From positions 48,111 through 112,110 of the forward strand of contig CAYLQP010000001.1 of the NCBI GenBank assembly GCA_964386665.1: DNA of 64,000 nt, written 5' to 3'. A program made the position numbers and the translations under genes. Under the pieces are notes generated by a model. That model made no database searches. It was not told the DNA's origin and was given only the letters and a program-made list of their open reading frames with translations. The stretch's first letter is position 1, and the number at the start of each line of letters is the position of its first letter. Below are positions 10,001-53,019 of the stretch, piece after piece. Source of the stretch: an uncultured Candidatus Saccharibacteria bacterium (GTDB lineage: Bacteria; Patescibacteriota; Minisyncoccia; Phycocordibacterales; CAIRYW01).

Positions 10001-10680
10001 GAAAATACAAACTTATTGCGATTGCTCCAGATTCAGGAGAAAAATCAAAATCAAAAGCCAAGAAAGATGCGTACGTATATGAAGTGTATCGAGGACGTGT
10101 ACCTTTGGTGAAGGTGGGAGAATCAGTTACAAAAGGACAAGTTCTTACTGATGGATCAGTAAATATTGATGACCTATTCAAATATGCTGGTAAAGAGGTG
10201 ACTGGAGAATATATTATTTCTGAAATTAAGAAACTGTATGAACTTCAAGGAGAGCCGGTAAACCGAAAACACATTGAACTTATTGTTAAGCAAATGTTCT
10301 CTCGGGTGAAAATTAAGTCAGCAGGAGGAACTGTGTTTGCAGTAGGAGATGTGGTGGAATGGCAAGAATTCTTCGACCAAAACGAAAAAGCAAAGAAAGA
10401 AGGTCTTGAAGAATCGAAGTCAGAATCAATCGCACTTGGAATCACTGAAGTATCACTTTCACGAAAGAGTTTCCTTTCTGCGGCATCATTCCAACACACA
10501 ACTCGAGTACTTATTTCTTCAGCAGTGGAAGGATCAAAAGATACACTTACAGGACTTATGGAAAACGTTATCCTTGGACGACTTATTCCAGCAGGAAGTG
10601 GATTTAAAGGAAGTCAAAAAGCAGAAATCATCTCAAAGCTTCAAGAAACATTTGAAGATAACACAGAATCAAATTATTAA
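7006..10680 (+). CDS. rpoC: DNA-directed RNA polymerase subunit beta-prime
   Basis: 1224 aa. N-terminal zinc-binding Cys cluster (CYCGKYKG...CEKCGVE), the NADFDGD catalytic motif, the bridge helix and the trigger loop are all present. Confidence 0.97.
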
Positions 10681-13794: not shown

Positions 13795-14739
13795 ATGAAA
13801 CACATAAAACTGTTTAAAGATTTGACCAAAAACGATGCTCATATTGCAGGTGGGAAAGGGGCTAGTCTTGGTGAGATGACAAATGCGGGTATCCCGGTCC
13901 CAGGAGGGTTTGTGATCACAAGTGAATCTTTTGAATTTTTCTTATCCCAAAATGATTTAACTCAAGAAATTGAAGCGATTCTAAAGAAAGTGAATCATAA
14001 AGAAATGGAATCAGTAGAAAGAGCAAGTGAGAATATAAAAGAACTTATTTTAAAAGCGACACTGCCAAAAGAAATGCAAAAAGAGATAAAAACAAACTTT
14101 GCAAAACTTAAGGCAAAATTTGTGGCAGTGAGAAGTTCTGCAACTGCTGAGGATGGGGTAGAGCATGCGTGGGCAGGACAACTCGATAGTTTTTTAAATA
14201 CTACTACGAAGAATTTGGAAGAAAATGTGAAGCGATGTTTTGCGTCACTCTTTACTCCGCGAGCAATCTTTTATCGATTTGAAAAAGGTCTAAATAAAAG
14301 TCATATATCAGTTGCGGTTGTTGTTCAAAAGATGATCCAAAGTGAAAAGTCTGGAATTGCTTTTTCGGTGCATCCTGTGACAGAAGATAGAAATCAAATG
14401 ATTATAGAAGGTTCGTGGGGACTTGGTGAGGCGATTGTTTCTGGGCAGATTACACCAGATTCGTATGTGATCGAGAAAGATACAAATACAATTATTGATA
14501 CAAATGTCGCCGAAAAGGCCAGAGGCCTTTTCGGCGACAACAAAGGCAAAAATGTGTGGAAAAACATTCCAAACAAAAAGGCAAACGAACAATGTCTCTC
14601 TGGAAAAGAAGTGATTGCTCTAGGAGAAATCATAAAACGAATAGAAAAGCATTACGGATTTCCTTGTGATATCGAATGGGCGTATGAAAAGAAAAAGTTT
14701 TTTATTGTACAAAGTAGACCTATTACTACGCTAAAATGA
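13795..14739 (+). CDS. PEP synthase / pyruvate-phosphate dikinase-family ATP-binding (PPDK_N, ATP-grasp-like) domain protein, stand-alone
   Basis: 314 aa. Matches PPDK_N blocks: GGKGASLGEM..GIPVPGGFVIT, AVRSSATAEDG..AGQLDSFLN, SGIAFSVHPVT, IEGSWGLGEAIVSGQITPD, and the IEWAY..FIVQSRPIT C-terminus. It ends right after this domain and carries no His-swivel or PEP-binding domain. Confidence 0.75.
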   Translation: MKHIKLFKDLTKNDAHIAGGKGASLGEMTNAGIPVPGGFVITSESFEFFLSQNDLTQEIEAILKKVNHKEMESVERASENIKELILKATLPKEMQKEIKTNFAKLKAKFVAVRSSATAEDGVEHAWAGQLDSFLNTTTKNLEENVKRCFASLFTPRAIFYRFEKGLNKSHISVAVVVQKMIQSEKSGIAFSVHPVTEDRNQMIIEGSWGLGEAIVSGQITPDSYVIEKDTNTIIDTNVAEKARGLFGDNKGKNVWKNIPNKKANEQCLSGKEVIALGEIIKRIEKHYGFPCDIEWAYEKKKFFIVQSRPITTLK

Positions 14740-14757
14740 ATATCAAATTAAAATTAT

Positions 14758-15537
14758 ATGCAAGAATTTAATTTTATAAGACATGCTGAAAAAATGAATG
14801 AAGGTGAGGAAAGGTGTGCACTGAATGAATCTGGATTAACTTTATCACAACAGGAAAAATGGACGAACGCTGTAGACAGATTGAATCTCGAAGATCCACA
14901 AATTAGATTCGAAGCTTTACCTAAGATTGAGGAATTGGCAAAGATTATATGTGAAAAATTACCAGACAGAGCTCTTCTTATTTTTAATTCAACAGACACA
15001 CCTCGCACTAAATTGACTGCTGATTTTTTATCTACTTCTGTTATTGAAGATGCAAAAAAACAAGGTAAAGATATAAGAGTTGCTTTTATATGGGAACCAA
15101 AAGATAAAGCTAAAGAAGACGGTTCTCTAATGAGGGTTTCAGAGAGTGTTGGAACACCAACGATGTTAAGACTTATGCAAGAGGTGGAAGAAAGTAATGA
15201 TGATAGTTTAGAAAGATATCTAACTTCAGGTAAAGGAGGATTTGCGCACCCAAAAGAGGATGAGTTGGTTATGAAAGCTGTTAACAGTGATCTTGCTAGA
15301 GGAGAGAATTCTCTTTTCAGAAAAAGGGCTCAAGTATTAAGAGTACAGGCGGATCGTATAAAAGAGAAATTTACTGAAAAAGATTTACCACTATATTTTT
15401 TTGGCATTGGTCATCATGGAAGTCTTGTAGCACTTGATGTTGCTTTTAATGAACGTACGCATTATGATTCAGTAGATCAAATACCACAGCCACTAAGTGT
15501 ATGGAGTGCTAATTTAAATACAGAAAATGAAAGCTAA
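14758..15537 (+). CDS. histidine-phosphatase-superfamily-like protein (noncanonical RHAEK signature)
   Basis: 259 aa. Has FNFIRHAEK near the N-terminus, an LT..Q.EKW element, and a C-terminal GIGHHGSLVALD block that resembles the second catalytic His region of PGM/SixA-type enzymes. The assignment is tentative. Confidence 0.4.
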   Translation: MQEFNFIRHAEKMNEGEERCALNESGLTLSQQEKWTNAVDRLNLEDPQIRFEALPKIEELAKIICEKLPDRALLIFNSTDTPRTKLTADFLSTSVIEDAKKQGKDIRVAFIWEPKDKAKEDGSLMRVSESVGTPTMLRLMQEVEESNDDSLERYLTSGKGGFAHPKEDELVMKAVNSDLARGENSLFRKRAQVLRVQADRIKEKFTEKDLPLYFFGIGHHGSLVALDVAFNERTHYDSVDQIPQPLSVWSANLNTENES

Positions 15538-16555
15538 ATTAATAAAAACTTTTACTCGAGAATTTCCTCTTATACATGTTCAAATATGGGGAAGGAGATA
15601 TGCAACAGAATTTCTTGGTGAAAAGTTACCTAATGTTCCGATCCATGTCTTTTTTTTGAAAGATGGGCTGGTTACCGGTTACAAAAACACTCCAAGTCAG
15701 TCTGAGGTTATTAACCCAATTATTCGAAGTAAATTGGATAATGATCCAGATTTTATTAAAAAATATGTAAGTAATAAATCTGATCTTCTAGAAAAACTAT
15801 TTAAAATAAACGAAAACAGTAACTTGTCGCTCGAAAATTTTAAAAAGTATCTTTTAGATCTTTTTGAATATTGGCATATTCATTACATTGCTCAATTTTT
15901 ACCTCTTGATGAAAATAGGTTTACAAAAGAAGAGCGTGACTATGCAATGGATCTAAGAAAAAAAATAGAAAAAGCAATTCATAATTCTTGGAATTCTTTA
16001 GTGCCTATTCTCAAAAAACTTTTTCCTGATTTAGGTGAACTAGTAACATACATTGAATTGGATGAGTTGCTGAAATCAAAAATACCAGATAAATCAGAAC
16101 TTGAAAAAAGAGCAAAAGACGGCGTGTTTGTTTATAATGGTGATGTTGTCAATAAAGAACAGTTAAGTGAATTAGAAGAAAAAAATAATTTTGAAGTTGA
16201 GTGGAATAATATGGTTGATGAAGCAAAAGAAATAACAGGACAGATTGTGTACCCTGGAAAAGTAACTGGCAACGTTAGAGTTATCTTAAAAAAAGATGAT
16301 GTGGTTAACTTTAAAGACGGAGAGGTCCTTGTTTCTTATATGACGATGCCTGCTTTTATCTTTGCTATACAAAAAGCTTCCGCTTTCGTGACCGACGAGG
16401 GAGGAATCACCTGTCACGCCGCCATCGTCGCCCGCGAACTCAAAAAACCCTGTATCATCGGCACCAAAATCGCAACAAAAGTGTTGAAGGATGGAGATTT
16501 GGTGGAGGTGGATGCGGAGAAGGGGGTAGTTAAGATACTTAAAAGAGTAAATTAA
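15527..16555 (+). CDS. PEP-utilizing-enzyme mobile (phosphohistidine swivel) domain protein with a ~250-aa N-terminal domain of unknown function
   Basis: The C-terminal 80 aa match the PEP-utilizers domain (GEVLVSYMTMPAFIFAIQKASAFVTDEGGITCHAAIVARELKKPCIIGTKIA...DGDLVEVDAEKGVV). Overlaps the previous gene by 11 nt, suggesting translational coupling. Confidence 0.7.
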   Translation: MKAKLIKTFTREFPLIHVQIWGRRYATEFLGEKLPNVPIHVFFLKDGLVTGYKNTPSQSEVINPIIRSKLDNDPDFIKKYVSNKSDLLEKLFKINENSNLSLENFKKYLLDLFEYWHIHYIAQFLPLDENRFTKEERDYAMDLRKKIEKAIHNSWNSLVPILKKLFPDLGELVTYIELDELLKSKIPDKSELEKRAKDGVFVYNGDVVNKEQLSELEEKNNFEVEWNNMVDEAKEITGQIVYPGKVTGNVRVILKKDDVVNFKDGEVLVSYMTMPAFIFAIQKASAFVTDEGGITCHAAIVARELKKPCIIGTKIATKVLKDGDLVEVDAEKGVVKILKRVN

Positions 16556-17632: not shown

Positions 17633-18901
17633 ATGGCAATTGAACTCATCATAAAAAGAAATGGATCCGTTGTTAATTTTGATCGGTCACACATTGAGAT
17701 TGCTCTTTCAAAAGCATTCAAGGCAACCGAAGTGGATGTTACTCCCGAAAAAATAGTTGAGATTACTGATCTCGTAATTGTGAAGCTTCGAGAACGATTT
17801 GGAAATAGTGTTCCAACAGTTGAAGGAGTTCAAGATTTCGTAGAAATTGCCCTGATGGAATCAGGTTTTCATACTACCGCAAAAGCGTATATCTTGTATC
17901 GACAGGAACACGCGGAACTTCGAAAGCGAGACATATTCAAAAAGCGTTTGGCACTCAAACCTTACGAATACCCAGAGCTTCTTGAATATGTTGATGGTAT
18001 CAGACATTCATATTGGCTTCACACTGAGTTTAACTTCACTTCAGATATTCACGACTATATGGTGAACACAACATCGCTTGAAAAAAATGCACTAAAAAAC
18101 GCTATGCTTGCGATTGCTCAAGTGGAAGTGTCGGTTAAAACATTTTGGGGAGATATTTACAAAAAGATTCCTAAACCAGAAGTTGGTGCGGTAGGGGCAA
18201 CCTTTTCAGAAAGTGAAGTGCGCCATCAAGATGCGTATGCACACCTTATCGAAATCCTCGGGCTCAATCACGAGTTTGAAAGGATTAAAGAAATTCCAGC
18301 AATCATAAGTCGGATTAACTACATCGACAAAGCAATTGCAAACGCTCACTCAGATCACCACAAGGAATACTCAAAAACACTTCTTTTGTTCTCTCTTTTT
18401 ATTGAACACGTTTCGCTCTTTTCTCAGTTTCTTATTATTATGTCTTTCAATAAACACAAGGGGCTCTTTCGAGGGGTATCAAACGTTATTGAGGCAACGT
18501 CAAAAGAAGAACAGATTCACGGACTTTTTGGAATCGATCTTCTTAGAATCATCAAATCAGAATACCCACAATGGTTTACGGAGGAGTATAATGAAACAGT
18601 GCTTGAACTTTGTCGTGAAGCATACGAAGCCGAAAAAGAGATTGTTGATTGGATATTTGAAAAAGGGGAGCTTGATTTCTTACCAAAACAAACTGTGCTC
18701 GAGTTTATAAAGAATCGTTTCAATAATTCTCTGCAATCACTTGATTTACCAAAAATCTTTGAAATAAACCAAGAAATACTTGAACAGACAGATTGGTTTG
18801 ATGACGAGATTATGACAACCAAACATCTTGATTTCTTTGTAAAGCGTTCTGTGAATTATAATAAAAGAGTAGAAAGTATCACAGGAGAAGATTTGTTTTA
18901 A
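17633..18901 (+). CDS. nrdB: class I ribonucleotide reductase small (radical-generating) subunit with an N-terminal ATP-cone
   Basis: 422 aa. Residues 1-95 match the ATP-cone (IIKRNGSVVNFDRSHIEIALSKAF...AYILYRQE). The rest is the ferritin-like R2 core (EVRHQDAY, FIEHVSLFSQF). Confidence 0.85.
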   Translation: MAIELIIKRNGSVVNFDRSHIEIALSKAFKATEVDVTPEKIVEITDLVIVKLRERFGNSVPTVEGVQDFVEIALMESGFHTTAKAYILYRQEHAELRKRDIFKKRLALKPYEYPELLEYVDGIRHSYWLHTEFNFTSDIHDYMVNTTSLEKNALKNAMLAIAQVEVSVKTFWGDIYKKIPKPEVGAVGATFSESEVRHQDAYAHLIEILGLNHEFERIKEIPAIISRINYIDKAIANAHSDHHKEYSKTLLLFSLFIEHVSLFSQFLIIMSFNKHKGLFRGVSNVIEATSKEEQIHGLFGIDLLRIIKSEYPQWFTEEYNETVLELCREAYEAEKEIVDWIFEKGELDFLPKQTVLEFIKNRFNNSLQSLDLPKIFEINQEILEQTDWFDDEIMTTKHLDFFVKRSVNYNKRVESITGEDLF

Positions 18902-18928: not shown

Positions 18929-20602
18929 ATGTATTGGCTCAACGAAAATAGTAGAAAGTTTCTTGCGAAAGATTATCTGATGAATGGTCAGGCGGCAGAG
19001 GATCGAATCCGTGATATTGCAAACACTGCAGAAAAGATCCTTGGGATTCCTGGATATGCTGATAAGTTTTATGGGTATATGGAAAAAGGGTATTACTCAC
19101 TTTCAACACCGGTCTGGGTAAACTTCGGAGTAGAAAAAGGACTTCCTATTAGTTGTTTTGGTTCATACATTGGAGATACGATGGGAGATATCCTTTATAG
19201 TAATGCTGAAGTAGGAATGATGAGTAAAAAAGGAGGAGGAACATCAGGGTATTTTGGAGACTTGCGAGCACGTGGTTCATCGATTACAAACAATGGTTCA
19301 TCATCAGGACCAGTTCACTTTATGGAGTTGTTTGATGTGATGGCAAATATTGTAAGCCAAGGTTCAACTCGAAGAGGACATTTTTCACCATATCTTCCAG
19401 TTGAGCATCCCGATATCGAAGAGTTTCTTGATATTGGAACAGAAGGGAACAAGATCCAAGGTCTTACTCACGCAGTGACTGTGACAAACAAATGGCTTGA
19501 AGAAATGGTTGCAGGAGACGAAAAGAAACGTGCAATCTGGGCCAAGATTCTTAAACGACGAACAGAAATGGGGTATCCGTATATTATGTTTGCTGACAAT
19601 ATGAATAATGGAACAGTAGATGTGTATAAGGATAAGGGACATAAGATTTTGGGAAGTAATCTTTGTAGTGAAATTGCCCTTCCTTCAAGTGTGGATTGGT
19701 CATTTGTATGTTGTCTTTCTTCAATCAACCTGATGCACTTCGATGCATGGAAAGATACTGATGCGGTTGAAACGCTCGTCTACTTCCTTGATGCAGTGAT
19801 GGAAGAGTTTATTCTCAAACTTGAAGGTTACCGAGATAGTGAAAACAGAGAACGAAGAAATGAATTTATTTTCTTGGAACGAGCATACAACTTTGCAAAA
19901 CAAAACCGAGCTCTTGGACTTGGAGCACTTGGACTCCACTCACTATTCCAAAGCAAGATGTATGCGTTTGAAAGTGCGGAAGCTCAGAAACTCAATGTGG
20001 AAATCTTCAAATTCATTCACGAACGAGCTTACAAAGCATCAAAGGAACTTGCAGAAAAATTCGGCGAACCAGAAGTTCTCAAGGGATACGGCAGACGAAA
20101 TACAACACTTATGGCAGTTGCTCCAAACACTTCTTCAGCATTTATCTTGGGACAAGTATCTCAAGGGATAGAACCAATCTGGTCAAACTGTTACGTAAAA
20201 GATATCGAAAAGATGAAAGTAACTATCAAGAACCCTTTCCTTGAAAAACTTCTTGAAGAAAAAGGTCAAAACACAAAAGAAGTGTGGCAAACTATTCGAG
20301 ACAGAGATGGTTCAGTTCAACACCTCGACTTCCTGTCAACAGAAGAAAGAATTATTTTCCAAACATTTGCTGAGATCGACCAATACGCGGTGATCGACCA
20401 AGCAGCGGCACGACAAAAGTATATTGACCAAAGTCAATCACTTAACCTTATGATTAATCCGAAAACTACTTCAGCAAAAGAAATCAATGCACTCTATATG
20501 GATGCGTGGAAACAAGGGGTAAAGACGCTCTACTATCAGCACAGTATGAATGCAGCCCAAGTACTCAACCGAAAGAAGGTGTGTATTGCGTGCGAAGCGT
20601 AA
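18929..20602 (+). CDS. nrdA: class I ribonucleotide reductase catalytic subunit, short form lacking an ATP-cone
   Basis: 557 aa. Active-site NLCSEI motif and a C-terminal CIAC redox pair. No N-terminal ATP-cone. Confidence 0.9.
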   Translation: MYWLNENSRKFLAKDYLMNGQAAEDRIRDIANTAEKILGIPGYADKFYGYMEKGYYSLSTPVWVNFGVEKGLPISCFGSYIGDTMGDILYSNAEVGMMSKKGGGTSGYFGDLRARGSSITNNGSSSGPVHFMELFDVMANIVSQGSTRRGHFSPYLPVEHPDIEEFLDIGTEGNKIQGLTHAVTVTNKWLEEMVAGDEKKRAIWAKILKRRTEMGYPYIMFADNMNNGTVDVYKDKGHKILGSNLCSEIALPSSVDWSFVCCLSSINLMHFDAWKDTDAVETLVYFLDAVMEEFILKLEGYRDSENRERRNEFIFLERAYNFAKQNRALGLGALGLHSLFQSKMYAFESAEAQKLNVEIFKFIHERAYKASKELAEKFGEPEVLKGYGRRNTTLMAVAPNTSSAFILGQVSQGIEPIWSNCYVKDIEKMKVTIKNPFLEKLLEEKGQNTKEVWQTIRDRDGSVQHLDFLSTEERIIFQTFAEIDQYAVIDQAAARQKYIDQSQSLNLMINPKTTSAKEINALYMDAWKQGVKTLYYQHSMNAAQVLNRKKVCIACEA

Positions 20603-22223: not shown

Positions 22224-22279
22224 AATCCATCTCAAATATATTTATTGAGAATTTGTATCAGAGTGCTACAATAGAGTCT

Positions 22280-23707
22280 ATGCAAACAACGTATTATCCA
22301 ACTATAGGACTAGAAATTCACGCCGAACTTACTACCAAAAGTAAGATGTTTTGTGGATGCAAAAATGATCCCGATGAAACAACTCCAAACGCCAATGTTT
22401 GTCCTGTGTGTATGGGTCATCCTGGAACACTCCCGTATCCGAATTTCGAGGCGATAAAACACGTTCTTAAAGTAGGAATCGCGCTCGATGGAACCCTTGC
22501 GGACTTTACTGAATTCGATCGAAAAAATTATTTCTATCCTGATATTCCAAAAGGGTATCAGATTAGCCAAGCTAAGTATCCGTTTGTCACAGGGGGGAAT
22601 CTTGAGGGAGTTGCAATCACTCGTGTGCATCTCGAAGAAGATACAGCAAAAAGTGGTCACGAAACAGGGGATTATTCTCTTGTAGATTTTAATCGATCAA
22701 GCCTTCCTCTTATGGAGCTTGTGACAGAGCCTGTGATTCATGATGCAAAGACAGCAGGAAACTTCGCGCGAGAACTTCAGCTTCTGTTACGGTATCTTGG
22801 AGCAAGTGAAGCTAATATGGAAAAAGGTCAGATGCGAGTGGAAGCAAATATTTCTATTTCTCCCGAAGAAGGAAAGTTAGGAACAAAAGTAGAAGTAAAA
22901 AACCTGAACTCGTTTCGCTCAGTTGAACGGGCGATTGAATACGAAATTGAACGACACAAAGCACTTCTTGAAGCAGGAGAAGAAATCAAGCAAGAAACAC
23001 GTGGGTTTGATGAAACCACAGGTAAGACGTTCTCACAGCGAAGCAAAGAAGATGCGCACGATTATCGATATTTCCCAGAACCAGATATACCAAAGATGTA
23101 TATTTCAGAAATTCCCGAATTTGAACTTGAGACACTCAAAAAAGAAATGCCAGAACTACCCAAAGAAAAACGAGTTCGATATGCAAATGAGTACAAAATA
23201 AAGTCAGACGACATAGAAGTGTTTGTTCAAAACCCTACTCTTGCCACCTTCTTTGAGCGAGCGATTAGTAACTTCTGTGATGATACCTCTTGTATTCAAC
23301 TTGCTTCAAACTATATGATTTCGGATTTGATGGGATTGATGAAAGCAGAAGGAAGGGAAGATGTCGGGGCACTGTTTCCTAGTTCGTTTGGTGAGCTTAT
23401 GCTTCTGCTTAAGGAAGGCAAGATCTCAAGTCGTGGAGCCAAAGACCTACTTGCACTTATGTACAAAGAAGGAGGAGAAAACCCAGAGAAGATTGCAGAA
23501 GAGAAAGGTTGGATTCTCAAAGATGATCCAGAATTACTCAAAAGAATACTTGTAGACATAATGTCAAAAAACCAAAAGAGTGTTGAAGAATATCGAAGTG
23601 GAAAAGAAAACGCACTCAATGCGCTCATTGGCCAAGCTATGAAAGAAAGCAAAGGTGCCTTTAGTCCACAGACAATCAAAGAAGGATTGATCGAAATTTT
23701 GAAATAA
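22280..23707 (+). CDS. gatB: aspartyl/glutamyl-tRNA(Asn/Gln) amidotransferase subunit B
   Basis: YYPTIGLEIHAELTTKSKMFCGC...CPVCMGHPGTLP, plus a C-terminal GatB/YqeY domain. Confidence 0.92.
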   Translation: MQTTYYPTIGLEIHAELTTKSKMFCGCKNDPDETTPNANVCPVCMGHPGTLPYPNFEAIKHVLKVGIALDGTLADFTEFDRKNYFYPDIPKGYQISQAKYPFVTGGNLEGVAITRVHLEEDTAKSGHETGDYSLVDFNRSSLPLMELVTEPVIHDAKTAGNFARELQLLLRYLGASEANMEKGQMRVEANISISPEEGKLGTKVEVKNLNSFRSVERAIEYEIERHKALLEAGEEIKQETRGFDETTGKTFSQRSKEDAHDYRYFPEPDIPKMYISEIPEFELETLKKEMPELPKEKRVRYANEYKIKSDDIEVFVQNPTLATFFERAISNFCDDTSCIQLASNYMISDLMGLMKAEGREDVGALFPSSFGELMLLLKEGKISSRGAKDLLALMYKEGGENPEKIAEEKGWILKDDPELLKRILVDIMSKNQKSVEEYRSGKENALNALIGQAMKESKGAFSPQTIKEGLIEILK

Positions 23708-23708
23708 A

Positions 23709-23740
23709 AAAAACAACGAACAGGGGGGGTTCGTTGTGAG
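23709..23740. terminator. bidirectional terminator between gatB (+) and purH-N (-)
   Basis: caacgaac-aggggggg-ttcgttg hairpin with an A-run on one side. It sits between convergent genes. Confidence 0.45.
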
Positions 23741-23742
23741 TT

Positions 23743-24354
23743 CTAGTCTGCTTTAGGACTCTTTTTCCCATTCAGAAACTCAAAGATCGCGAGGTCGTAG
23801 CTGCTGGTACGCTCGAACACGTGGATTGCGAGGCGCTCGCGGGTTTCAAACTTCGTTGCGCCACCGTTCGACCGCATTTCTTCGAGTACCACGGCGTAGT
23901 CCGCAGGGTCCGTGACGATGGTCACGGACTGGTAGTTTTTTGACGCAGCACGTAGCATGGCCGGACCACCGACATCAATGTTCTCAATCGCATCCTCCAG
24001 TGTCACGCCATCCTTCGCCACGGTCTGCTCGAAGGGATAGAGGTTTACAATGAGCAGATCAATCGGCAGTACGTCGTGCTCCTTAGCCTGCTCCACGTGT
24101 TGGGCGTTTTCCCGCTGATAGAGTAAGCCGCCATGGACCTTCGGGTGCAGGGTCTTCACCCGACCGTCGAAACATTCTGGGTAGCCGGTGAAATCCGCTA
24201 CTTCGATCACTGGAATACCCAGCTTCCGTATAAATGCCGCGCTGCCGCCCGTGGAGATGATTTCTACTCCCATTGCGTGCAGTCCTTGTACCAAGGTTTC
24301 CAGCCCGTTCTTGTTTGATACCGATATGAGTGCTCGCGTGATTTTTGGGTCCAT
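23743..24354 (-). CDS. purH: stand-alone IMP cyclohydrolase (PurH N-terminal MGS-like domain only), GC-anomalous
   Basis: Strong match to the PurH N-domain (ALISVSNKNGL..STGGSAAFIRKLGIPVIEVADFTGYPECFDGRVKTLHPKVHGGLL..NLYPFEQTV..IENIDVGGPAMLRAASKNY). No AICAR transformylase domain follows. The coding body is about 58% GC against about 38% for its neighbours. The ATG at 24354 (MDPKIT) is preferred over the track start at 24441. Confidence 0.75.
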   Translation of the reverse strand: MDPKITRALISVSNKNGLETLVQGLHAMGVEIISTGGSAAFIRKLGIPVIEVADFTGYPECFDGRVKTLHPKVHGGLLYQRENAQHVEQAKEHDVLPIDLLIVNLYPFEQTVAKDGVTLEDAIENIDVGGPAMLRAASKNYQSVTIVTDPADYAVVLEEMRSNGGATKFETRERLAIHVFERTSSYDLAIFEFLNGKKSPKAD

Positions 24355-24435
24355 TTTCAGGATGTGTTTGATTTGAAGTTTCCCTAACAGATGTGAAAGG
24401 GCGACTATTCCACACATTAACAAATCAGATTTTTT

Positions 24436-24466
24436 TTGCAACTTTTTGAAAAAGGTATGATATAAT
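24436..24466 (+). promoter_or_regulatory. candidate sigma-70 promoter for gap (TTGCAA -35, extended TGaTATAAT -10)
   Basis: TATAAT at 24461-24466 with TG at 24458-24459. The ATG follows at 24475. Confidence 0.35.
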
Positions 24467-24474
24467 TATTCGAA

Positions 24475-25692
24475 ATGATGACACAAAAGAAAATTAAAGT
24501 TGCAATCAATGGAGCAGGACGAATTGGCCGAGCGTTTTATAAGATTGCAGCAAGTATTGATCAAATGGAAATCGTTGCAATCAATGATTTGGGAGACATC
24601 GAAAACATTGCATACTTAATGAAGTTTGATAGTGCATATGGCAAGAGCGGATTTTCGGTTGATGTATGTGATGACAAAAAGTCGTTGATGCTTGGAGGAA
24701 AAAAAGTTCACTTCTTTAGTGAAAAAGAACCAAAAAATCTTCCTTGGAAAGATCTCGGTATTGATGTAGTAGTAGAGTCAACTGGGTTTTTTACTTCATA
24801 CGAAAAATCAAAAGGACACCTCGAAGCCGGAGCAAAGCGAGTAGTGATTTCTGCTCCCGCCAAAGACGAAGTAGGAAGTGCTTTCCAAACTCCTACAATC
24901 CTTATTGGTATCAATGAAGGGGACTTTGTAAAGGCGCCTGTTACTTCAAATGCAAGTTGTACAACCAATGCTTCAAGTCCTGTAATGGCAATTCTTGATG
25001 AAGTAATAGGTATCGAAAAAGCGATTCTTTCAACTGTTCACGGATACACTGCAAGTCAGTCACTTGTAGACAGTCCAAGCAAAAAAGATTGGAAAGAAGG
25101 CCGAGCAGCTGGCCAAAACATTGTTCCTACATCAACTGGTGCGGCCCTTGCAGTAGCAAAAGCACTTCCACAACTAGAAGGTAAGTTTGATGGTATCTCA
25201 ATGCGAGTTCCTGTGATTGCTGGATCTATTGCTGATATCACATTTATTGCAAAACGACCAACAAGTGTTGAAGAGGTAAATCAGATTTTGCTCACTGCCT
25301 CACAAGATGATCGATGGCGAGATGTCTTTTCTTGCACAAATGATCCTTTGGTTTCTTCTGATATTGTTGGATCAATCTTTGCTTCTATTGCCGACCTTAA
25401 CCTGACTCGTGTTGTTGATCGAACTTTGGTGAAAGTTTGTGCTTGGTATGACAACGAGATCGGCTATACTCACGCACTTGTTATGCACGTACTTAAAGCG
25501 GCACAAGTAGTTATCGAGGAGCACTCTGAATTTAGTAAGAATCTTATTGAAGCTCATTCTGATGAGGAAACACAAACACAGTCTCCTGTAAGTGTTGCAC
25601 CAGAACCTCAAGTGGCTCCTATCGTAGTAGAAAAAGAAGAGAAAGAAGCTGATGAGGATATGGGACCTCCGCCAATTCCTCGATATGTATAA
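24475..25692 (+). CDS. gap: glyceraldehyde-3-phosphate dehydrogenase (type I) with a ~70-aa acidic/Pro-rich C-terminal extension
   Basis: NGAGRIGR Rossmann motif and catalytic SNASCTTN. After residue ~335 the sequence turns into an E/P/V-rich low-complexity tail. Confidence 0.9.
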   Translation: MMTQKKIKVAINGAGRIGRAFYKIAASIDQMEIVAINDLGDIENIAYLMKFDSAYGKSGFSVDVCDDKKSLMLGGKKVHFFSEKEPKNLPWKDLGIDVVVESTGFFTSYEKSKGHLEAGAKRVVISAPAKDEVGSAFQTPTILIGINEGDFVKAPVTSNASCTTNASSPVMAILDEVIGIEKAILSTVHGYTASQSLVDSPSKKDWKEGRAAGQNIVPTSTGAALAVAKALPQLEGKFDGISMRVPVIAGSIADITFIAKRPTSVEEVNQILLTASQDDRWRDVFSCTNDPLVSSDIVGSIFASIADLNLTRVVDRTLVKVCAWYDNEIGYTHALVMHVLKAAQVVIEEHSEFSKNLIEAHSDEETQTQSPVSVAPEPQVAPIVVEKEEKEADEDMGPPPIPRYV

Positions 25693-25695
25693 TGT

Positions 25696-26169
25696 ATGAA
25701 CCTGATTTATATTGCATCTGACCACGCAGGATTTGGGCTCAAAGAAGAGTTAAAAGTTTTTCTTGAGACACTTGGATATCAAGTAATTGATAAGGGTCCT
25801 TTTATGCTTAATCCAGAAGATGATTATCCAGAACTTGTATTACCTGTCGCACTTGAAGTTGCAAAAGATTCAAATGCGAAAGGGATTGTTATTGGTGGAA
25901 GTGGACAAGGGGAAGCTATGGTGTGTAACCGACTTAGGGGGGTGCGTGCAGTGGTGTTTAATGGACAATATGAACCAAAAGATGGACGGACTGTTCCAAA
26001 CGAGATTCGAGTTTCTCGGGAACACAATGATGCAAATATTCTTTCTCTTGGTGCTCGGTTTATAAATACACAAGAGGCAAAAATTGCAGTTAATGTGTGG
26101 CTTGGTACAAAGTTTTCGGGAGACGAAAGGCATGTGAGGAGAATTAAAAAGATAGATGAAATTTTATGA
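25696..26169 (+). CDS. rpiB: ribose-5-phosphate isomerase B (RpiB/LacAB family)
   Basis: IYIASDHAGFGLKEEL, GIVIGGSGQGEAMVCNR. Confidence 0.85.
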   Translation: MNLIYIASDHAGFGLKEELKVFLETLGYQVIDKGPFMLNPEDDYPELVLPVALEVAKDSNAKGIVIGGSGQGEAMVCNRLRGVRAVVFNGQYEPKDGRTVPNEIRVSREHNDANILSLGARFINTQEAKIAVNVWLGTKFSGDERHVRRIKKIDEIL

Positions 26170-26957
26170 TTGAGATAATTAATAAGAGTTATCAAAAATC
26201 AAAATTGATCTGGGAGTCCCGTATCCTGGTAATTTTATTCCTATGTTTAGTGACTTACAAGTATTCTTTTTTTATGTTTTGTGGTGTGGGTTATGAACCA
26301 TCTTTTATCCCATCAATTTGTTATATTTTTTATATCTTGTACATTCTTATTCCTTTGAATGTTATATTAATAATTATTAATATATTCAGCAAACGATTTG
26401 TAAAAATAAGTTTTTATTATGTAGGATTCTTTTTGTTTTTTATGTCTTTAATATTTCCTCTTGTTGGTAAATTTTGGGATCAGTATAAATATTATAAAGG
26501 TTATGATAGTGAACTTGAGCAAAGTATTGTCGAATATAAGAATTCAATTGATAATTATTTTATTTTAAATCAACGTGACGAATCTAAGGTCACTGAATGT
26601 ACAATTTATCATTTTTCCCAAATTAATAACTTTAAAGAATTGCATAAGGTATTAAATTTTGATATATGTGGCATCAAATATTTTTTTGATCCAAATCGTT
26701 CGGACCAAAGCATAACTTATGATCTTTTAAAAAAGGACAGACCTAAACTGAGGGGGTTTCCTCATAAAACTCAGGGTAGCTATATTTACGGGATAGACAT
26801 TTTCCGAACGAAATTTAAAGTCTATCTTTTTCCTAAAATTATTAACAGATCAGGAATGAATCTAATTTATCAACAGGGGATTATTGAAAGTATTTTTGTT
26901 GATGAAAAATGGGTTGATTTCAGATCTTATGCTTTAGAGAATTTAAAAGAAAAATAA
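26166..26957 (+). CDS. hypothetical membrane protein, strongly AT-rich orphan
   Basis: 263 aa. Three or four N-terminal TM helices and a soluble Tyr/Lys/Asn-rich C-terminal half. Codon usage is far more AT-biased than the flanking rpiB and rpe. Confidence 0.5.
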   Translation: MIEIINKSYQKSKLIWESRILVILFLCLVTYKYSFFMFCGVGYEPSFIPSICYIFYILYILIPLNVILIIINIFSKRFVKISFYYVGFFLFFMSLIFPLVGKFWDQYKYYKGYDSELEQSIVEYKNSIDNYFILNQRDESKVTECTIYHFSQINNFKELHKVLNFDICGIKYFFDPNRSDQSITYDLLKKDRPKLRGFPHKTQGSYIYGIDIFRTKFKVYLFPKIINRSGMNLIYQQGIIESIFVDEKWVDFRSYALENLKEK

Positions 26958-27682: not shown

Positions 27683-28552
27683 ATGAATTCTTTAGACGAT
27701 AAAAAAATAAAATTCTTAGAAGAAAAAGCGAATGATATCCGTCAGTCGATTATTGAAATGCTTTTGGAAGCGGGTTCAGGACATACAGCAGGACCACTTG
27801 GTATGACGGATATATTTACGGCACTTTTTTTTCATACACTCAAACATACGCCATCAGATCCAACCTGGCAAGAAAGAGATAGAGTCGTACTTTCAAACGG
27901 CCATATTTGCCCAGTGTATTATGCAACACTTGCTCATGCGGGATATTTCGCCATAGAAGAACTTAAGACACTTCGCAAATTTGGAAGCAGACTTCAGGGT
28001 CATCCACACCGAGAATTTTTGCCGATAGTTGAAACTTCTTCGGGTCCTCTTGGAAGTGGACTTTCTCAAGCAGTCGGGATGGCACTTGCTGATCGAATCG
28101 ATAATGGACGCAGTTCCAGTAAGCAATTTTATTGTTTTCTTGGTGATGGGGAACTTGATGAAGGTCAAAATTGGGAAGCACTCCTTCTTGCAGGAAAAGA
28201 AAAACTTCAAAACCTCACACTTATTGTTGACCGTAATAATATCCAAATTGATGGATTTACAGAAGATGTGATGCCACTTAACCCACTGGATAAAAAGTTT
28301 GAAGCGTTTAATTTCCATGTGCAGGTGATTGATGGGCACAATTTTGAGCAGATTATCGGGGCGTTTGGGCAAGCACAATCAGTGTTTGATAAACCATCGG
28401 TGATTATTGCCAATACGATTCCTGGAAAAGGAGTAAAAGAGTTTGAAAGAAATTTCGAGTATCACGGGTTTATGAAAAACAAAGAAGAGGGTATAAAAGC
28501 ACTTGATGAACTACGAACACTCGGAGGAAAGATTGAAGGAGAACATAAATAA
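27683..28552 (+). CDS. tkt: transketolase, N-terminal (thiamine-diphosphate-binding) subunit of a split enzyme
   Basis: GSGHTAGPLGMTDIF, GHP, GPLGSGLSQAVGMALA, GDGELDEGQNWEA. Confidence 0.9.
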   Translation: MNSLDDKKIKFLEEKANDIRQSIIEMLLEAGSGHTAGPLGMTDIFTALFFHTLKHTPSDPTWQERDRVVLSNGHICPVYYATLAHAGYFAIEELKTLRKFGSRLQGHPHREFLPIVETSSGPLGSGLSQAVGMALADRIDNGRSSSKQFYCFLGDGELDEGQNWEALLLAGKEKLQNLTLIVDRNNIQIDGFTEDVMPLNPLDKKFEAFNFHVQVIDGHNFEQIIGAFGQAQSVFDKPSVIIANTIPGKGVKEFERNFEYHGFMKNKEEGIKALDELRTLGGKIEGEHK

Positions 28553-28585
28553 AAAAACTCTTCGAGTGGCTACGAAGAGGTGTTA
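28551..28585. terminator. bidirectional terminator between tktN (+) and the Cys-rich ORF (-)
   Basis: ctcttcg-agtggcta-cgaagag hairpin with an A-run 5' and T-rich sequence on the opposite strand. Confidence 0.5.
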
Positions 28586-28971
28586 GGGTTGTGCTTAGGG
28601 CAGAAGCATTGTCCAGACGGTGTGAACAAAATCCAACCTTTAGGATTTGGTTGGTCTGGTTTTCCAGTTAAGACTTGTTCTGCTGTGGTAGAACAATTAG
28701 GTGCATCGCATTGCCAGATTTTGACATCGAATACACCTCTATCAGGATTACTTATAGCCATTCTTTCCAAATCATCCCCGGTGGAAAAAATATCTTTGAC
28801 AGACCGGTGCGTAGGACACAGGGCAATTCTTCCTGACGTCTGTGTGCTACAGTTTGGCCTTGAGACTATGGAACAAGCCATCCATTCGGGACCAGCTGTG
28901 TGCGTACCAATTTGAATTATTGCTGGGCAATTAGGTACACTACAACACAGTTTTTTAATTTGTTGAATCAT
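28570..28971 (-). CDS. Cys-rich hypothetical protein with duplicated PNC...CP[TK]H motifs (putative zinc-binding)
   Basis: 133 aa with 12 Cys. Two half-repeats each carry PNC(P/S) and CP(T/K)H. Local GC is about 45%, above the host. The opposite-strand ORF 28580..28915 is less plausible. Confidence 0.4.
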   Translation of the reverse strand: MIQQIKKLCCSVPNCPAIIQIGTHTAGPEWMACSIVSRPNCSTQTSGRIALCPTHRSVKDIFSTGDDLERMAISNPDRGVFDVKIWQCDAPNCSTTAEQVLTGKPDQPNPKGWILFTPSGQCFCPKHNPNTSS

Positions 28972-29025
28972 GTTTTTTATCCCTTTCCATCACCAAATTT
29001 AACACAAATGCGCAAAAAAACAATC

Positions 29026-29053
29026 CTTGAATCACTTTGGAAATAGGCTATAA
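29026..29053 (+). promoter_or_regulatory. candidate promoter TTGAAT-N16-TATAAT giving a near-leaderless transcript for the MazG-like gene
   Basis: -35 at 29026-29031 and -10 at 29048-29053. The ATG at 29061 is 8 nt downstream of the -10. Confidence 0.4.
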
Positions 29054-29060
29054 TTTGAGT

Positions 29061-29438
29061 ATGAATCAATTGCAACAAAAAATATTAAAGTATATGAAAG
29101 CACGAAATTGGGACAAACTTCCTCCCGCTGACTTGGCAAAATCAATTTCAATTGAGGCAGCAGAACTTCTCGAACACTTCCAATGGCAAAACTTTTCGCC
29201 CGAAGAAATAAAAAAAGACAAAGAAAAGTATCAAGAAATCAAAGATGAAATGGGTGACATTATGATTTATTGTAGTGAGTTCGCTACCCGACTTGGTTTT
29301 GATCTTGAAACAGTTGCTAAAGCAAAATTAAAAAAAGCTGAAAAGAAATACCCTGCAAAGTTATTCAAGAACAGTAAAGACCCTCACGGAACAGGGGTAT
29401 ATCTTCAAATCAAAAAAGCCTATCGCGCAAAAAAATGA
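29061..29438 (+). CDS. MazG-like nucleotide pyrophosphohydrolase domain protein
   Basis: 125 aa from the ATG at 29061. Has the EAAELLEHFQW and EMGDIMIY helices typical of MazG/dCTPase-type all-alpha NTP pyrophosphatases. Confidence 0.65.
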   Translation: MNQLQQKILKYMKARNWDKLPPADLAKSISIEAAELLEHFQWQNFSPEEIKKDKEKYQEIKDEMGDIMIYCSEFATRLGFDLETVAKAKLKKAEKKYPAKLFKNSKDPHGTGVYLQIKKAYRAKK

Positions 29439-29767
29439 TTACGTACGAAGATTTTAGCAAAGTTGAAATCAAAGTAGGGCAGATAGTTGCTGTTGACGAT
29501 TTTCCTGAAGCTCGAAAACCTGCTTACAAACTGACTATCGATTTTGGAGAAGAGATAGGAATAAAGAAATCTTCTGCTCAAATCACTGATCATTACACAA
29601 AAGAAAGTTTGATGGGCAAACAAGTGCTTTGTGTGACAAACTTTCCTCCGAAACAAGTTGGACCATTTATTTCTGAAGTCTTAACACTTGGGCTCCCAGA
29701 CGCGGAAGGCAAAGTAGTACTCATTTCTCCTGACAAGGAAGTTCCGCTTGGAAAAAATATTTTTTAA
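29435..29767 (+). CDS. tRNA-binding domain protein (CsaA/Trbp111/EMAP-II-like OB fold)
   Basis: EDFSKVEIKVGQIVAV..FPEARKPAYKLTIDFG...QVLCVTNFPPKQVG. ATGA overlap with the upstream gene. Confidence 0.75.
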   Translation: MITYEDFSKVEIKVGQIVAVDDFPEARKPAYKLTIDFGEEIGIKKSSAQITDHYTKESLMGKQVLCVTNFPPKQVGPFISEVLTLGLPDAEGKVVLISPDKEVPLGKNIF

Positions 29768-29797
29768 TCTAGATTGGAAGTGATATAATCATAATGA

Positions 29798-30787
29798 ATG
29801 ATTGAGAAAACTTTAAATCCAAAAATATTTGATACAGATGTTGAACAAGTGCCTATTAGGCGCGGATTTGGCGAAGGTCTTGTTATAGCAGCCGAAAAAG
29901 ACGGTAACGTTGTGGCGCTTTGTGCTGACCTCACCGATTCAACTCAAATGAAAGTGTTTCGTGATATGTTTCCAGATCGATTTATTGAAATAGGGATTGC
30001 AGAACAGAACCTCGCATCAGTTGCAAGTGGAATGGCAGCAATGGGGAAGGTGCCTGTCATTTCTTCTTATGCAATGTTTTCTCCTGGGCGAAACTGGGAG
30101 CAGATTCGAACTACAATCTGTTACAACAACCAGAAGGTGATTATTGCAGGAAGTCACGCGGGTGTTTCGGTAGGCCCTGATGGAGGAACACATCAGGCTC
30201 TCGAAGATATTGCTCTTATGAATGTAATTCCAAATATGACGGTTGTAAGTCCTTGTGATACCATCGAGGCTAAGAAAGCTATCATTGCCTTGCTTGGAGA
30301 CGATGTCAAAACTCCTGCATACATCCGTCTTGCACGTGAAAAAACTCCTGTTATTACAACAGAAGGGTCTCCATTTAAACTTGGGAAAGCAAAACTTCTT
30401 TTCGACAATGGTCATGCAGAGGTAGTGGTGTTTGCGTGTGGGGCACTCGTGCATAAAGCACTTGTCGTTGCGAGTGAATTACAAAAAGAAGGACGATTAG
30501 TGAATGTAGTAAATGTACACACCATCAAACCTCTCGATGTGGATATGGTTGTTGATCAAGCTCGGATTTGTGGAGCAGTTGTTGTAGTAGAAGAACATCA
30601 AAAGTTCGGTGGACTTGGAAGTGTGATAGCAGAGTGTTTAAGTGAGAAATTTCCAGTGCCAATTGAATTTGTTGCGGTAAATGACAGGTTCGGACAATCG
30701 GGCACACCTGATGAACTTATCAAAGAATATAATCTTGATGAAGAAGATATCAAAAAAGCGATAGAAAAAGTGGTGGGAAGGAAGTAG
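29798..30787 (+). CDS. tkt: transketolase, C-terminal (pyrimidine-binding plus C-terminal domain) subunit
   Basis: IAEQNLASVASGMA, GSHAGVSVGPDGGTHQALEDIALM. An extended -10 (TGaTATAAT) lies at 29781-29789, 9 nt before the ATG. Confidence 0.9.
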   Translation: MIEKTLNPKIFDTDVEQVPIRRGFGEGLVIAAEKDGNVVALCADLTDSTQMKVFRDMFPDRFIEIGIAEQNLASVASGMAAMGKVPVISSYAMFSPGRNWEQIRTTICYNNQKVIIAGSHAGVSVGPDGGTHQALEDIALMNVIPNMTVVSPCDTIEAKKAIIALLGDDVKTPAYIRLAREKTPVITTEGSPFKLGKAKLLFDNGHAEVVVFACGALVHKALVVASELQKEGRLVNVVNVHTIKPLDVDMVVDQARICGAVVVVEEHQKFGGLGSVIAECLSEKFPVPIEFVAVNDRFGQSGTPDELIKEYNLDEEDIKKAIEKVVGRK

Positions 30788-52166: not shown

Positions 52167-52444
52167 GGAGTAAAGATAAAAGACTAAAAACCAAAGAGGA
52201 GAAGGGGAAAGCGCGCAGGACCAAAGGCCCTGCGCGCTTGAAAATGGTCTGAGAGAGAGGGTGCTGAACAGAGTTATGTGGTTCAAGCACTGGATCACGC
52301 GACTGCGGAGTTGTTATGACCCCTCTCGTCTCTCAGCCATCTGCCGACAACACCTGGCTTCTTCACGGTGCTGAGTATTGAGGGCAGAAAAGAAAAATCT
52401 AAAATAATTTTATTGTTTTTGTATTAAAAGTCAAATCTGTACAA

Positions 52445-52680
52445 AACTGAAAGGTCCCCGCAAGCTGCGCTTGCGGGGACCTTGAAATATTCACCTGAGA
52501 GAGCTGTGCTAGGAGCAAGTTCGCACAGCCTTCAACTTTATCCTGTGTGTCTGGGTCCGCCAGACTTACGGATAAGGGTTTAGGCACTCTCTCAGGCTTA
52601 TTTTGGCCACTACGGAGAAGGTCCAGGAATCCTTCGGGTTCATCCTGGGCATTGTGTGGCGCAAATCAAAGAAATTGACT
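52445..52680 (-). ncRNA. candidate structured ncRNA, paralog 1 (own promoter TTGACT-N16-TAATAT at 52687-52714; terminator hairpin 52453-52479)
   Basis: GC-rich (~55%) and ORF-free. A 10-bp closing helix (cctgagagag/ctctctcagg) encloses internal hairpins. The 5' leader and 3' terminator are conserved with paralog 2, while the core differs. Confidence 0.5.
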
Positions 52681-52725
52681 GACCCTCATATTACTCACAA
52701 TCCTCTTGAAGTCAAATCTGTACAA

Positions 52726-52989
52726 AACTGAAAAGTCCCCCGCAAGCGCAGCTTGCGGGGGACTTTGAAATACCGACCTGGAGGGGTAGCAAGGTGTAGG
52801 GGCACCGAGTAAGGTTCTACACCTCCTCTGACCAACTGTGTGCTCCAGTTGTCCGCGGGACCACAGGTGGTCGTTAAGGGATGCTTCCCTCCAGGTAGTT
52901 TTGCTCACATGTGGCGCAGTTCCAAGTCCGAAGTAGTGTGTGTAACAGCCTTGGAGAACATACGTGAGACAAATCAAAGAAATTGACTG
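52726..52989 (-). ncRNA. candidate structured ncRNA, paralog 2 (promoter TTGACT-N16-TAATAT at 52996-53023 overlapping the cysS stop; terminator hairpin 52734-52762)
   Basis: Same architecture as paralog 1. Its closing helix is acctggaggg/ccctccaggt, which covaries with paralog 1's helix at the equivalent position. Confidence 0.5.
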
Positions 52990-53019
52990 ACTCCCATATT
53001 ACTTATAATCCTCTTGAAG

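Follow-up and report, generated by a model that had tools for sequence, protein, structure and literature searches.

Here we analyzed a 64,000-nucleotide (nt) stretch of DNA assigned to an uncultured Candidatus Saccharibacteria bacterium (contig CAYLQP010000001.1, positions 48,111 to 112,110; hereafter the window), in which a small gene rich in guanine and cytosine (GC), lying on the reverse strand between gatB and gap, encodes a stand-alone inosine monophosphate (IMP) cyclohydrolase corresponding to the N-terminal half of PurH. The explanation which we moderately favor is that this gene, together with its own control signals (the cassette), encodes a functional PurH2-type enzyme, was acquired horizontally and inserted between gatB and gap, and has had the erosion of its GC excess offset by renewal of the cassette. 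At the level of sequence, every membership test places the protein in an already known type, the stand-alone PurH2. Unusual are a reduced host of the candidate phyla radiation (CPR) without a visible purine pathway, the accessory inverted insertion into a conserved operon, and a foreign base composition that has lasted too long.

The original prediction, made from the letters of the sequence, described a stand-alone PurH N-domain without the 5-aminoimidazole-4-carboxamide ribonucleotide (AICAR) transformylase domain, and Pfam, NCBIfam and tblastn searches agree on this point. The open reading frame (ORF) on which it was based (23743..24441, reverse strand) opens at a TTG codon, the real start being the ATG at 24354. 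In the resulting 203-amino acid (aa) protein, the Pfam MGS-like domain (PF02142) covers residues 18-131 with 79.4 bits (cut-off 24.1), while AICARFT_IMPCHas (PF01808) is matched over model positions 1-61 of 311 only. The NCBIfam PurH equivalog NF002049 is matched over positions 4-197 of 510, and the score of 278.8 bits falls under the full-length cut-off of 402 because the protein represents half of PurH. In a PDB search, the best solved structures were bifunctional PurH enzymes aligned over their N-terminal 190-200 residues (E = 1.8e-64, residues 5-195). Since the Pfam, NCBIfam and PDB alignments are all confined to the N-terminal part of PurH, the protein is, as judged by homology, the IMP cyclohydrolase half alone, and the transformylase half is absent.

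Residues K67, Y106, D127 and K139, which we take to correspond to K66, Y104, D125 and K137 of human ATIC, are invariant in all seven syntenic orthologs described below and in 68 full-length PurH proteins, as are R65, T68, S11-V12-S13-x-K15 and S34-T35-G36-G37. In addition, all active-site motif positions that are at least 90% conserved across the 68 canonical PurH are kept in 7/7 orthologs (motifs SVSxK, STGG, GRVKTLHPK, NLYPF and ENIDxGGPAMLRxxxKN), and the window protein itself carries the substitutions N14 for D, S38 for T and V128 for I. The ratio of nonsynonymous to synonymous divergence (dN/dS) among the orthologs is 0.07-0.15 in the pairs where it is computable, and no ortholog contains a stop codon or a frameshift. 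Taken together, the gene looks functional, with a catalytic core under purifying selection. Its most likely activity is the conversion of formyl-AICAR (FAICAR) to IMP + H2O, as suggested by the conserved residues and by the activity of Archaeoglobus fulgidus AF1811, a stand-alone PurH2 with a Michaelis constant (Km) of 7.8 uM for FAICAR that complements E. coli (PMC6797443).

Stand-alone forms of ~199 aa were also found in Desulfobacterales, Desulfobaccales, Desulfarculus, Desulfofustis and one spirochaete, one of them carrying the NCBI name 'IMP cyclohydrolase'. The window protein resembles AF1811 and the Desulfobacterota PurH2 in its lone MGS-like IMP cyclohydrolase domain, its length of about 200 aa and its catalytic motifs. 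The hosts of those enzymes, however, make purines de novo, encode a transformylase (PurH1 or PurP) elsewhere and show equal gene and genome GC, whereas here a reduced CPR host with no pur gene in 64 kb carries the gene as an accessory insert ~16 GC points above the window. Similarly, the protein is 55-65% identical over residues 5-195 to the cyclohydrolase domain of PurH/ATIC (PDB 9ou7, 4ehi, 3zzm, 1g8m and 1p4r), with all active-site residues present, but it lacks the AICAR transformylase domain, and hypervariability and recombination mark the helices that follow its core (about residues 135-203). The formycin-biosynthesis protein ForH (PDB 6nko, 216 aa) is likewise a stand-alone PurH-N-like cyclohydrolase; a ForH-like identity was rejected on the grounds of a match of 98.7 bits versus 220 for PurH and of the absence of a secondary-metabolite biosynthetic cluster around the gene. 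We also rejected methylglyoxal synthase (the MGS fold, about 130-150 aa), as NCBIfam returns PurH equivalogs only and all PDB matches are PurH or ForH.

In line with the original prediction, the composition of the coding sequence (CDS) is a strong outlier whose borders coincide with those of the CDS. The predicted value of about 58% GC applies to the central body (0.55-0.58 in 200-nt windows from 23800 to 24300, compared to 0.34-0.35 upstream and about 0.37-0.41 downstream), and not to the whole CDS, which has 54.6% GC and is thereby about 16 points richer than the window (38.8%). The excess sits in third codon positions: GC3 is 0.652 versus 0.303 +/- 0.056 in the 49 other window ORFs (z = 6.3), none of which exceeds 0.47, and first and second positions are not unusual (GC1 z = 1.6, GC2 z = 0.2). 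The four-fold degenerate sites are C in 0.31 and G in 0.37 of cases, as against 0.04-0.13 and 0.07-0.21, respectively, in gatB, gap, tktN, rpoB and atpD. The 5' extension of the ORF was correctly recognized as AT-rich (34.5% GC over 24355..24441), and it aligns to the conserved non-coding promoter and 5' untranslated region (5'UTR) of the orthologs. An assembly chimera is ruled out by the 100% identity of the locus between two independent assemblies.

Overlapping or antisense coding was rejected as a source of the high GC, the alternative-frame ORFs varying in place and length among orthologs. Long codon-aligned antisense frames occur in step with GC3, as would be expected, and are interrupted in the copy of the window. 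Because neither position nor length is conserved and third positions are randomised between lineages, the alternative-frame ORFs are by-products of the high GC. The original prediction had described them in this way, although one that it placed on the opposite strand (24083..24415) shares the strand of the gene and differs from it in frame.

The same cassette is present in seven lineages, namely the window (W), L003, L004, L005, L008/L013, L095 and L096, whose syntenic contigs are all low in GC (38-40%). The encoded proteins are 65-73% identical in aa sequence to that of the window (P0002 73%, P0004 66%, P0005 67%, P0009 65%; also P0027 and P0038). In 7/7 lineages the cassette lies in one orientation between convergent gatB and divergent gap-rpiB-rpe-tktN, with a 5' spacer of 114-125 nt that is alignable throughout. 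As site, orientation, promoter, UTR and terminator are shared, the alignments point to one insertion and to orthologous cassette genes. L248 and L247 have no cyclohydrolase gene, and gap follows gatB on the same strand at a distance of 41 nt and 7 nt, respectively. GatB of L248 is 78% identical to that of the window (distance 0.21) and GatB of L247 is 70% identical; in gatB, tktN and rpe distances, L248 is nearer to the window lineage than the cassette-bearing L008 and so falls inside the clade. These empty sites make the cassette accessory and imply an ancestral, uninterrupted gatB-gap-rpiB-rpe-tkt operon that received the cassette in inverted orientation. Within the clade, the cassette is present in some members and absent from others, through either loss in L248 or lateral spread. 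A metagenome scan returned no further syntenic copies among the matches listed, which were ordinary purH genes.

Two other low-GC contigs, L093 (positions 10001-10603; 38% GC) and L103 (43% GC), carry a stand-alone cyclohydrolase gene with a milder GC excess (0.46 and 0.51, respectively). The context of the former, with FKBP and MarR neighbours, is unlike the syntenic one, and the flanks of the latter, checked for window-gene homologues only, contained none. The phenomenon may have had more than one origin.

Beyond the syntenic copies, the top matches show 60-69% identity and belong to Verrucomicrobiota (Akkermansiaceae, Verrucomicrobiaceae and Limisphaerales), Desulfobacterota and others. The closest non-CPR relative of the window protein is a Verrucomicrobiota-like purH product (69%), and the best GC-rich homologue among 5.8 billion proteins reaches 69% for W and 71% for L008. 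In a neighbour-joining tree with 300 bootstraps, six CPR copies were joined with L011 and P0015 at 86%. L011 is a contig of 62% GC in which the N-domain is native (GC3 0.72 versus 0.74 in a neighbouring gene); on the near-identical sister contig L097, an AICARFT part follows just downstream, with 76% identity to that of an Akkermansiaceae metagenome-assembled genome (MAG), and the L011/L097 lineage is therefore Verrucomicrobiota-like. In non-CPR genes (68 full-length, 7 stand-alone) the GC of the N-domain follows the genome, and an excess, of about 9-20 points, is found at the CPR loci only. Overall, a horizontal origin of the coding sequence from a GC-rich bacterium is well supported by these comparisons, and the donor clade was probably Verrucomicrobiota-like. 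The predicted horizontal acquisition is thus borne out as to the foreign source (nearest non-CPR relative, empty sites in L247 and L248), and not as to its implied recent or private nature, given seven lineages at one site.

A donor gene that itself already stood alone is only weakly indicated. L011 was rejected as a naturally split donor, as it contains an essentially full-length Verrucomicrobiota-type purH with a nonsense codon and L097 is disrupted differently. As side observations, codon 202, which lies precisely where the two domains of purH meet, shows TAC->TAG in L011 (4289-4300), and L097 (8440-8560) has a deletion with a frameshift just after the GDNPH motif; this lineage may be in the course of losing or splitting off its transformylase half. 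Regarding the vehicle, a phage was rejected, viral purH homologues being just 37-53% identical, as were a mobile element and attachment (att) sites, since the cassette has no significant flanking repeats and the window no tRNA.

Unexpectedly, the GC excess is common to the orthologs and too persistent. GC3 in 7/7 orthologs is 0.49-0.75, compared to 0.21-0.34 in the flanking genes. The synonymous divergence (dS, NG86 method) of the flanks between the window and L004, L005 and L008 is mostly 1.3 to above 3, or incomputable. Using a two-state GC/AT decay model calibrated on the four-fold sites of gatB, gap, rpiB, rpe, tktN and tktC, we found that the correlation of GC/AT state retained between deep lineages at the flank four-fold sites is 0-0.16, and an inherited compositional excess should therefore shrink to 0-40%. 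The back-calculated ancestral GC at four-fold sites (GC4) amounts to 1.2-1.7 for the window copy and to 1.4-2.9 for L008, even at the upper confidence limit, and to about 0.9-1.1 for the W/L003 pair alone. As a GC4 above 1 is impossible, a single old transfer followed by passive amelioration does not fit. The gene's own four-fold sites are randomised between deep lineages, yet have a GC4 of 0.5-0.9. Simple recent transfers do not fit either, and no fresh donor is visible among the 5.8 billion proteins.

Two processes leave traces within the gene. Among 17 differences between L095 and L096 over the 5' two-thirds, all seven that could be polarised are GC->AT and none AT->GC, which points to AT-biased decay acting on the gene. 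Between the same two contigs, identity is 95-98% over gap, the spacer, codons 1-133 and gatB, but falls to about 40-60% from codon ~134 to the end of the gene and through the terminator, a patch of about 240 nt that represents a clean recombinational replacement. In addition, a maximum-chi-square analysis of synonymous differences detected a breakpoint in all three sister pairs (L095/L096, codon 128, p<0.001; W/L003, codon 164, p = 0.014; L004/L005, codon 129, p = 0.037). In every lineage the C-terminal third is hypervariable, with aa identities of 33-62% even for close relatives, whereas two segments of the catalytic core that together cover codons 46-135 are 82-100% identical in the three sister pairs. 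GC3 is patchy along the gene in L003 (0.24-0.77, p = 0.0009) and L095 (0.20-0.78, p = 0.006), and uniformly high in W and L008.

In the model that we moderately favor, the coding sequence would have been transferred from a GC-rich bacterium, its nearest sampled relative being the Verrucomicrobiota-like purH, and inserted in inverted orientation between gatB and gap of the gatB-gap-rpiB-rpe-tkt operon of a CPR/Patescibacteria lineage. The cassette has a putative weak promoter and a terminator of its own, together with a conserved block in the 5'UTR, and is found in only some of the relatives; purifying selection acts on its catalytic core, and recombination exchanges the hypervariable C-terminal third. 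Its GC-richness would be a signature of foreign origin that is eroded by AT-biased mutation, and this erosion would most likely be offset by repeated replacement of the whole or part of the cassette from a fresher GC-rich pool. The pool may consist of higher-GC CPR relatives with the same cassette, with AT-ward decay between renewals.

Several points weigh against this model. Among the 5.8 billion proteins, none is more than 73% identical, which leaves the fresh GC-rich pool hypothetical, and blastn against about 230 foreign purH loci found nothing of at least 85% identity over at least 45 nt (best 65-70%). Replacements from non-CPR donors would have no flanking homology, and the 3' third recombines most, yet is not the GC-richest part. 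The neighbour-joining tree is weak at depth, with L008 (together with P0020) falling elsewhere with weak support. The taxon label is uncertain as well: named GatB relatives (62-68% identical) belong to Paceibacterota/Parcubacteria (Taylorbacteria, Lloydbacteria and Pacebacteria), while one syntenic MAG is titled Candidatus Saccharibacteria. Finally, no source of FAICAR is visible, AICARFT and other pur genes being absent from the 64 kb and from the syntenic loci, and the FAICAR to IMP reaction is effectively irreversible, which leaves the role of the enzyme unclear.

Among the alternatives, the reading implied by the original prediction, a recent private acquisition whose GC excess marks an un-ameliorated fresh import, would account for the GC3 outlier (z = 6.3) with borders at the CDS, for a codon usage typical of a GC-rich genome and for the missing cassette in L247 and L248. 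The same site is, however, occupied in seven lineages whose flanks have reached or nearly reached synonymous saturation and which share a homologous promoter, UTR and terminator, the nearest GC-rich homologue is just 69% identical, and the sister L003 shares the gene at a dS of about 1.2. Because of this synteny, recent private import appears largely refuted and we regard it as very improbable; the GC excess as a simple signature of fresh transfer is likewise contradicted by the decay model and by nearest homologues of only 69-71% identity. Unlikely, although clearly less so, is a single ancient transfer to the clade ancestor followed by vertical descent, slow passive amelioration and secondary loss in L248. 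The one insertion site with homologous flanks, the GC->AT direction of recent changes and the cyclohydrolase distances, which broadly parallel those of gatB (W-L003 smallest, then L004/L005, with L008 farthest), all speak for it. Speaking against it are the ancestral GC4 above 1 that it requires for W and L008, the randomised four-fold sites that still have a GC4 of 0.5-0.9, and the patchy GC3 and intragenic breakpoints.

The main rival to renewal is a gene-specific force that keeps GC3 near-stationary, either nucleotide or codon selection or GC-biased heteroduplex repair at a recombination hot spot; we consider it somewhat unlikely. Such a force would explain why GC3 is 0.49-0.75 in every ortholog despite complete third-position turnover, why GC4 of L008 is 0.85-0.90 although its nearest GC-rich relative is 71% identical, and why the conserved core has the highest GC3, in a gene where recombination is frequent. 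Against it stand the 7:0 bias of recent substitutions towards AT, segments that have fully decayed (GC3 0.20-0.24) and the absence of a conserved overlapping frame. Messenger RNA folding is no stronger than in synonymous-codon shuffles in 4/5 orthologs (minimum free energy z about 0), and an Rfam search of the gene gave no match, leaving a structured RNA inside it unsupported. Translational selection was rejected, as codon use is unlike that of rpoB, gap or the highly expressed atpD, and the most recombining segment is the least GC-rich, which speaks against plain GC-biased conversion. It is also possible, but improbable in our view, that the protein is no longer an IMP cyclohydrolase and is either a remnant in decay or has been re-purposed for nucleotide binding or regulation, tied to the neighbouring pentose-phosphate and glycolysis genes. 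No partner transformylase was found nearby, the gene is divergent from gap-rpiB-rpe-tkt in all lineages, and the protein evolves 2-4 times faster than its neighbours (W-L003 72% versus 93% for GatB), with a hypervariable C-terminal third. The residues invariant in the active sites of 68 canonical PurH are nonetheless kept in 7/7 orthologs, dN/dS is low in the absence of frameshifts or stops, promoter and terminator are both its own and conserved, and the position of the gene is due to insertion into an older operon rather than to functional clustering.

The lack of purine de novo genes in the window, noted in the original prediction, is confirmed: none of the other large ORFs was identified as a pur gene in a Pfam survey, and six AICARFT domains used as tblastn queries had no match in the 64 kb or in the roughly 3-20 kb syntenic loci. 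Saccharibacteria genomes have been reported to be without complete purine synthesis and unable to make purines de novo (PMC7786006). We found no paper linking purH or IMP cyclohydrolase with Saccharibacteria, while one paper mentions both 'Patescibacteria' and 'IMP cyclohydrolase'. Judged from the 64-kb window, the orphan status of the enzyme is a hypothesis, and the enzyme is likely to salvage a formyl-AICAR-type intermediate, imported or made in some other way, in a host without the de novo pathway. A bolder combination, which we hold to be doubtful, is that the GC-richness is actively kept (by in-situ renewal from an unsampled GC-rich reservoir or by selection on composition) and that the orphan last-step enzyme lets a bacterium without de novo purine synthesis cyclise a formyl-AICAR-type intermediate taken from its own host or community. 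If true, it would constitute a metabolic tap on the purine pathway of another organism. CPR/Patescibacteria are regarded as relying on other cells for their nucleotides, and a conserved final-step enzyme on its own would indicate a specific imported intermediate, with the FAICAR to IMP reaction serving as a simple biochemical handle on that dependency. If the rest of the genome holds a normal split purine pathway, the finding shrinks to an ordinary split purH with an odd composition.

The locus also provides a clean natural test of the lifetime of a foreign base composition, being 9 to 20 GC points above its surroundings. As in Lawrence-Ochman amelioration, the gene combines atypical codons, a foreign phylogeny, presence/absence variation and AT-biased recent changes; unlike in that scheme, the atypical composition outlasts the synonymous saturation of the neighbours, is common to all orthologs and comes without hallmarks of mobile elements. 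The persistence of the cassette beside synonymously saturated neighbours is therefore hard to square with the standard amelioration picture.

The control signals of the cassette are listed in Table 1 together with its neighbours. A promoter-like pair, TTGCAAA / TGTTAnTnT, is conserved across the spacer alignment of the seven lineages, whereas a consensus promoter scanner made no call at the 5' region of the cyclohydrolase gene; on account of the conserved blocks, and with the scanner silent, the gene probably carries its own (weak) promoter. The 5'UTR block AGTCGCCCTTTCACATCTG, located within the spacer 24355..24474, is kept even though synonymous sites of the neighbour genes are randomised, and may act as an operator or as a small RNA element in control of the cyclohydrolase gene. 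A riboswitch was rejected, the 6-bp hairpin showing weak covariation only and no Rfam family being matched. On the opposite side of the spacer, the box TGATATAAT is found 8-9 nt ahead of the gap ATG in 7/7 lineages, and a similar TGTTATAAT occurs 9 nt before gap in the cassette-free L248; the gap mRNA is probably leaderless or near-leaderless and divergent from the cyclohydrolase gene. At the other end, the terminator follows a few nt past the stop codon, within the 35-nt gap to the convergent gatB stop, and the 3' spacer of 7/7 lineages contains a homologous hairpin followed by TTTTTTTAT (T7-ATT).

Table 1. Features of the cyclohydrolase cassette and its surroundings (window positions unless a contig is given)
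Feature	Position	Strand	Basis or remark
Stand-alone IMP cyclohydrolase CDS (PurH2-type, 203 aa)	23743..24354	-	ATG at 24354 is the start in all orthologs
Non-coding 5' region within the ORF, partly included in the 224-aa database model P0001	24355..24441	-	GC 0.345
-35-like TTGCAA	24441..24436	-	Sequence conservation
TG-extended -10-like TAATGT	24419..24414	-	Sequence conservation
5'UTR block AGTCGCCCTTTCACATCTG	24406..24388	-	Kept in 7/7 syntenic lineages; possible small hairpin
Intrinsic terminator of the cyclohydrolase gene	23702..23737 (hairpin and T-run 23737..23713)	-	9-bp stem ACAACGAAC / GTTCGTTGT + T-run
Extended -10 box TGATATAAT, 8 nt upstream of the gap ATG (24475)	24458..24466	+	Conserved in spacer alignment
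gatB, upstream gene of the interrupted operon, convergent with the cassette	22253..23707	+	Next to gap, same strand, in L247 and L248
gap (GAPDH), first of gap-rpiB-(orf)-rpe-tktN, downstream side of the insertion site	24475..25692	+	
Divergent patch, last ~70 codons + terminator	L095:2992-3231 vs L096:1441-1674		95-98% identity on both sides

The window further contains core genes (rpoB, rpoC, dnaG, rpoD, ribonucleotide reductase, uvrA/C, an F-type ATP synthase operon, cysS and AdoHcy hydrolase) and a glycolysis/pentose-phosphate set consisting of a PfkB kinase, a class II aldolase, gap, rpiB, rpe and a split transketolase. Within the interrupted operon, rpiB and rpe are separated by a 263-aa ORF (26166..26957) that has only 26.5% GC and matches no Pfam family; the window, L008 and L247 have a gene at this position, whereas L003, L005 and L248 have none, which makes it a second insertion/deletion polymorphism of the same operon. 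The transketolase is split into N and C genes (27683..30787), with three small genes between them (an unknown, a MazG-like and a tRNA-binding one). Similarly, a PPDK-like ATP-grasp domain, an unknown ORF and a PEP-utilizers domain are encoded as separate ORFs at 13795..16555. The ribonucleotide reductase (17633..18901 and 18929..20602) comprises a small subunit with an N-terminal ATP-cone and an adjoining short large subunit of 557 aa with a weak N-terminal match, the placement of the ATP-cone on the small subunit being uncommon. Finally, about 850 nt without a sizeable ORF (52170..53030; GC 0.45-0.55) contain direct repeats of 281-308 nt that are 93-97% identical. They gave no Rfam family at gathering score and no tRNA, and each includes a perfect 15-16-bp GC-rich hairpin (AAAGGTCCCCGCAAGC...GCTTGCGGGGACCTT); the region may represent repeated small-RNA genes or a repeated intergenic element.

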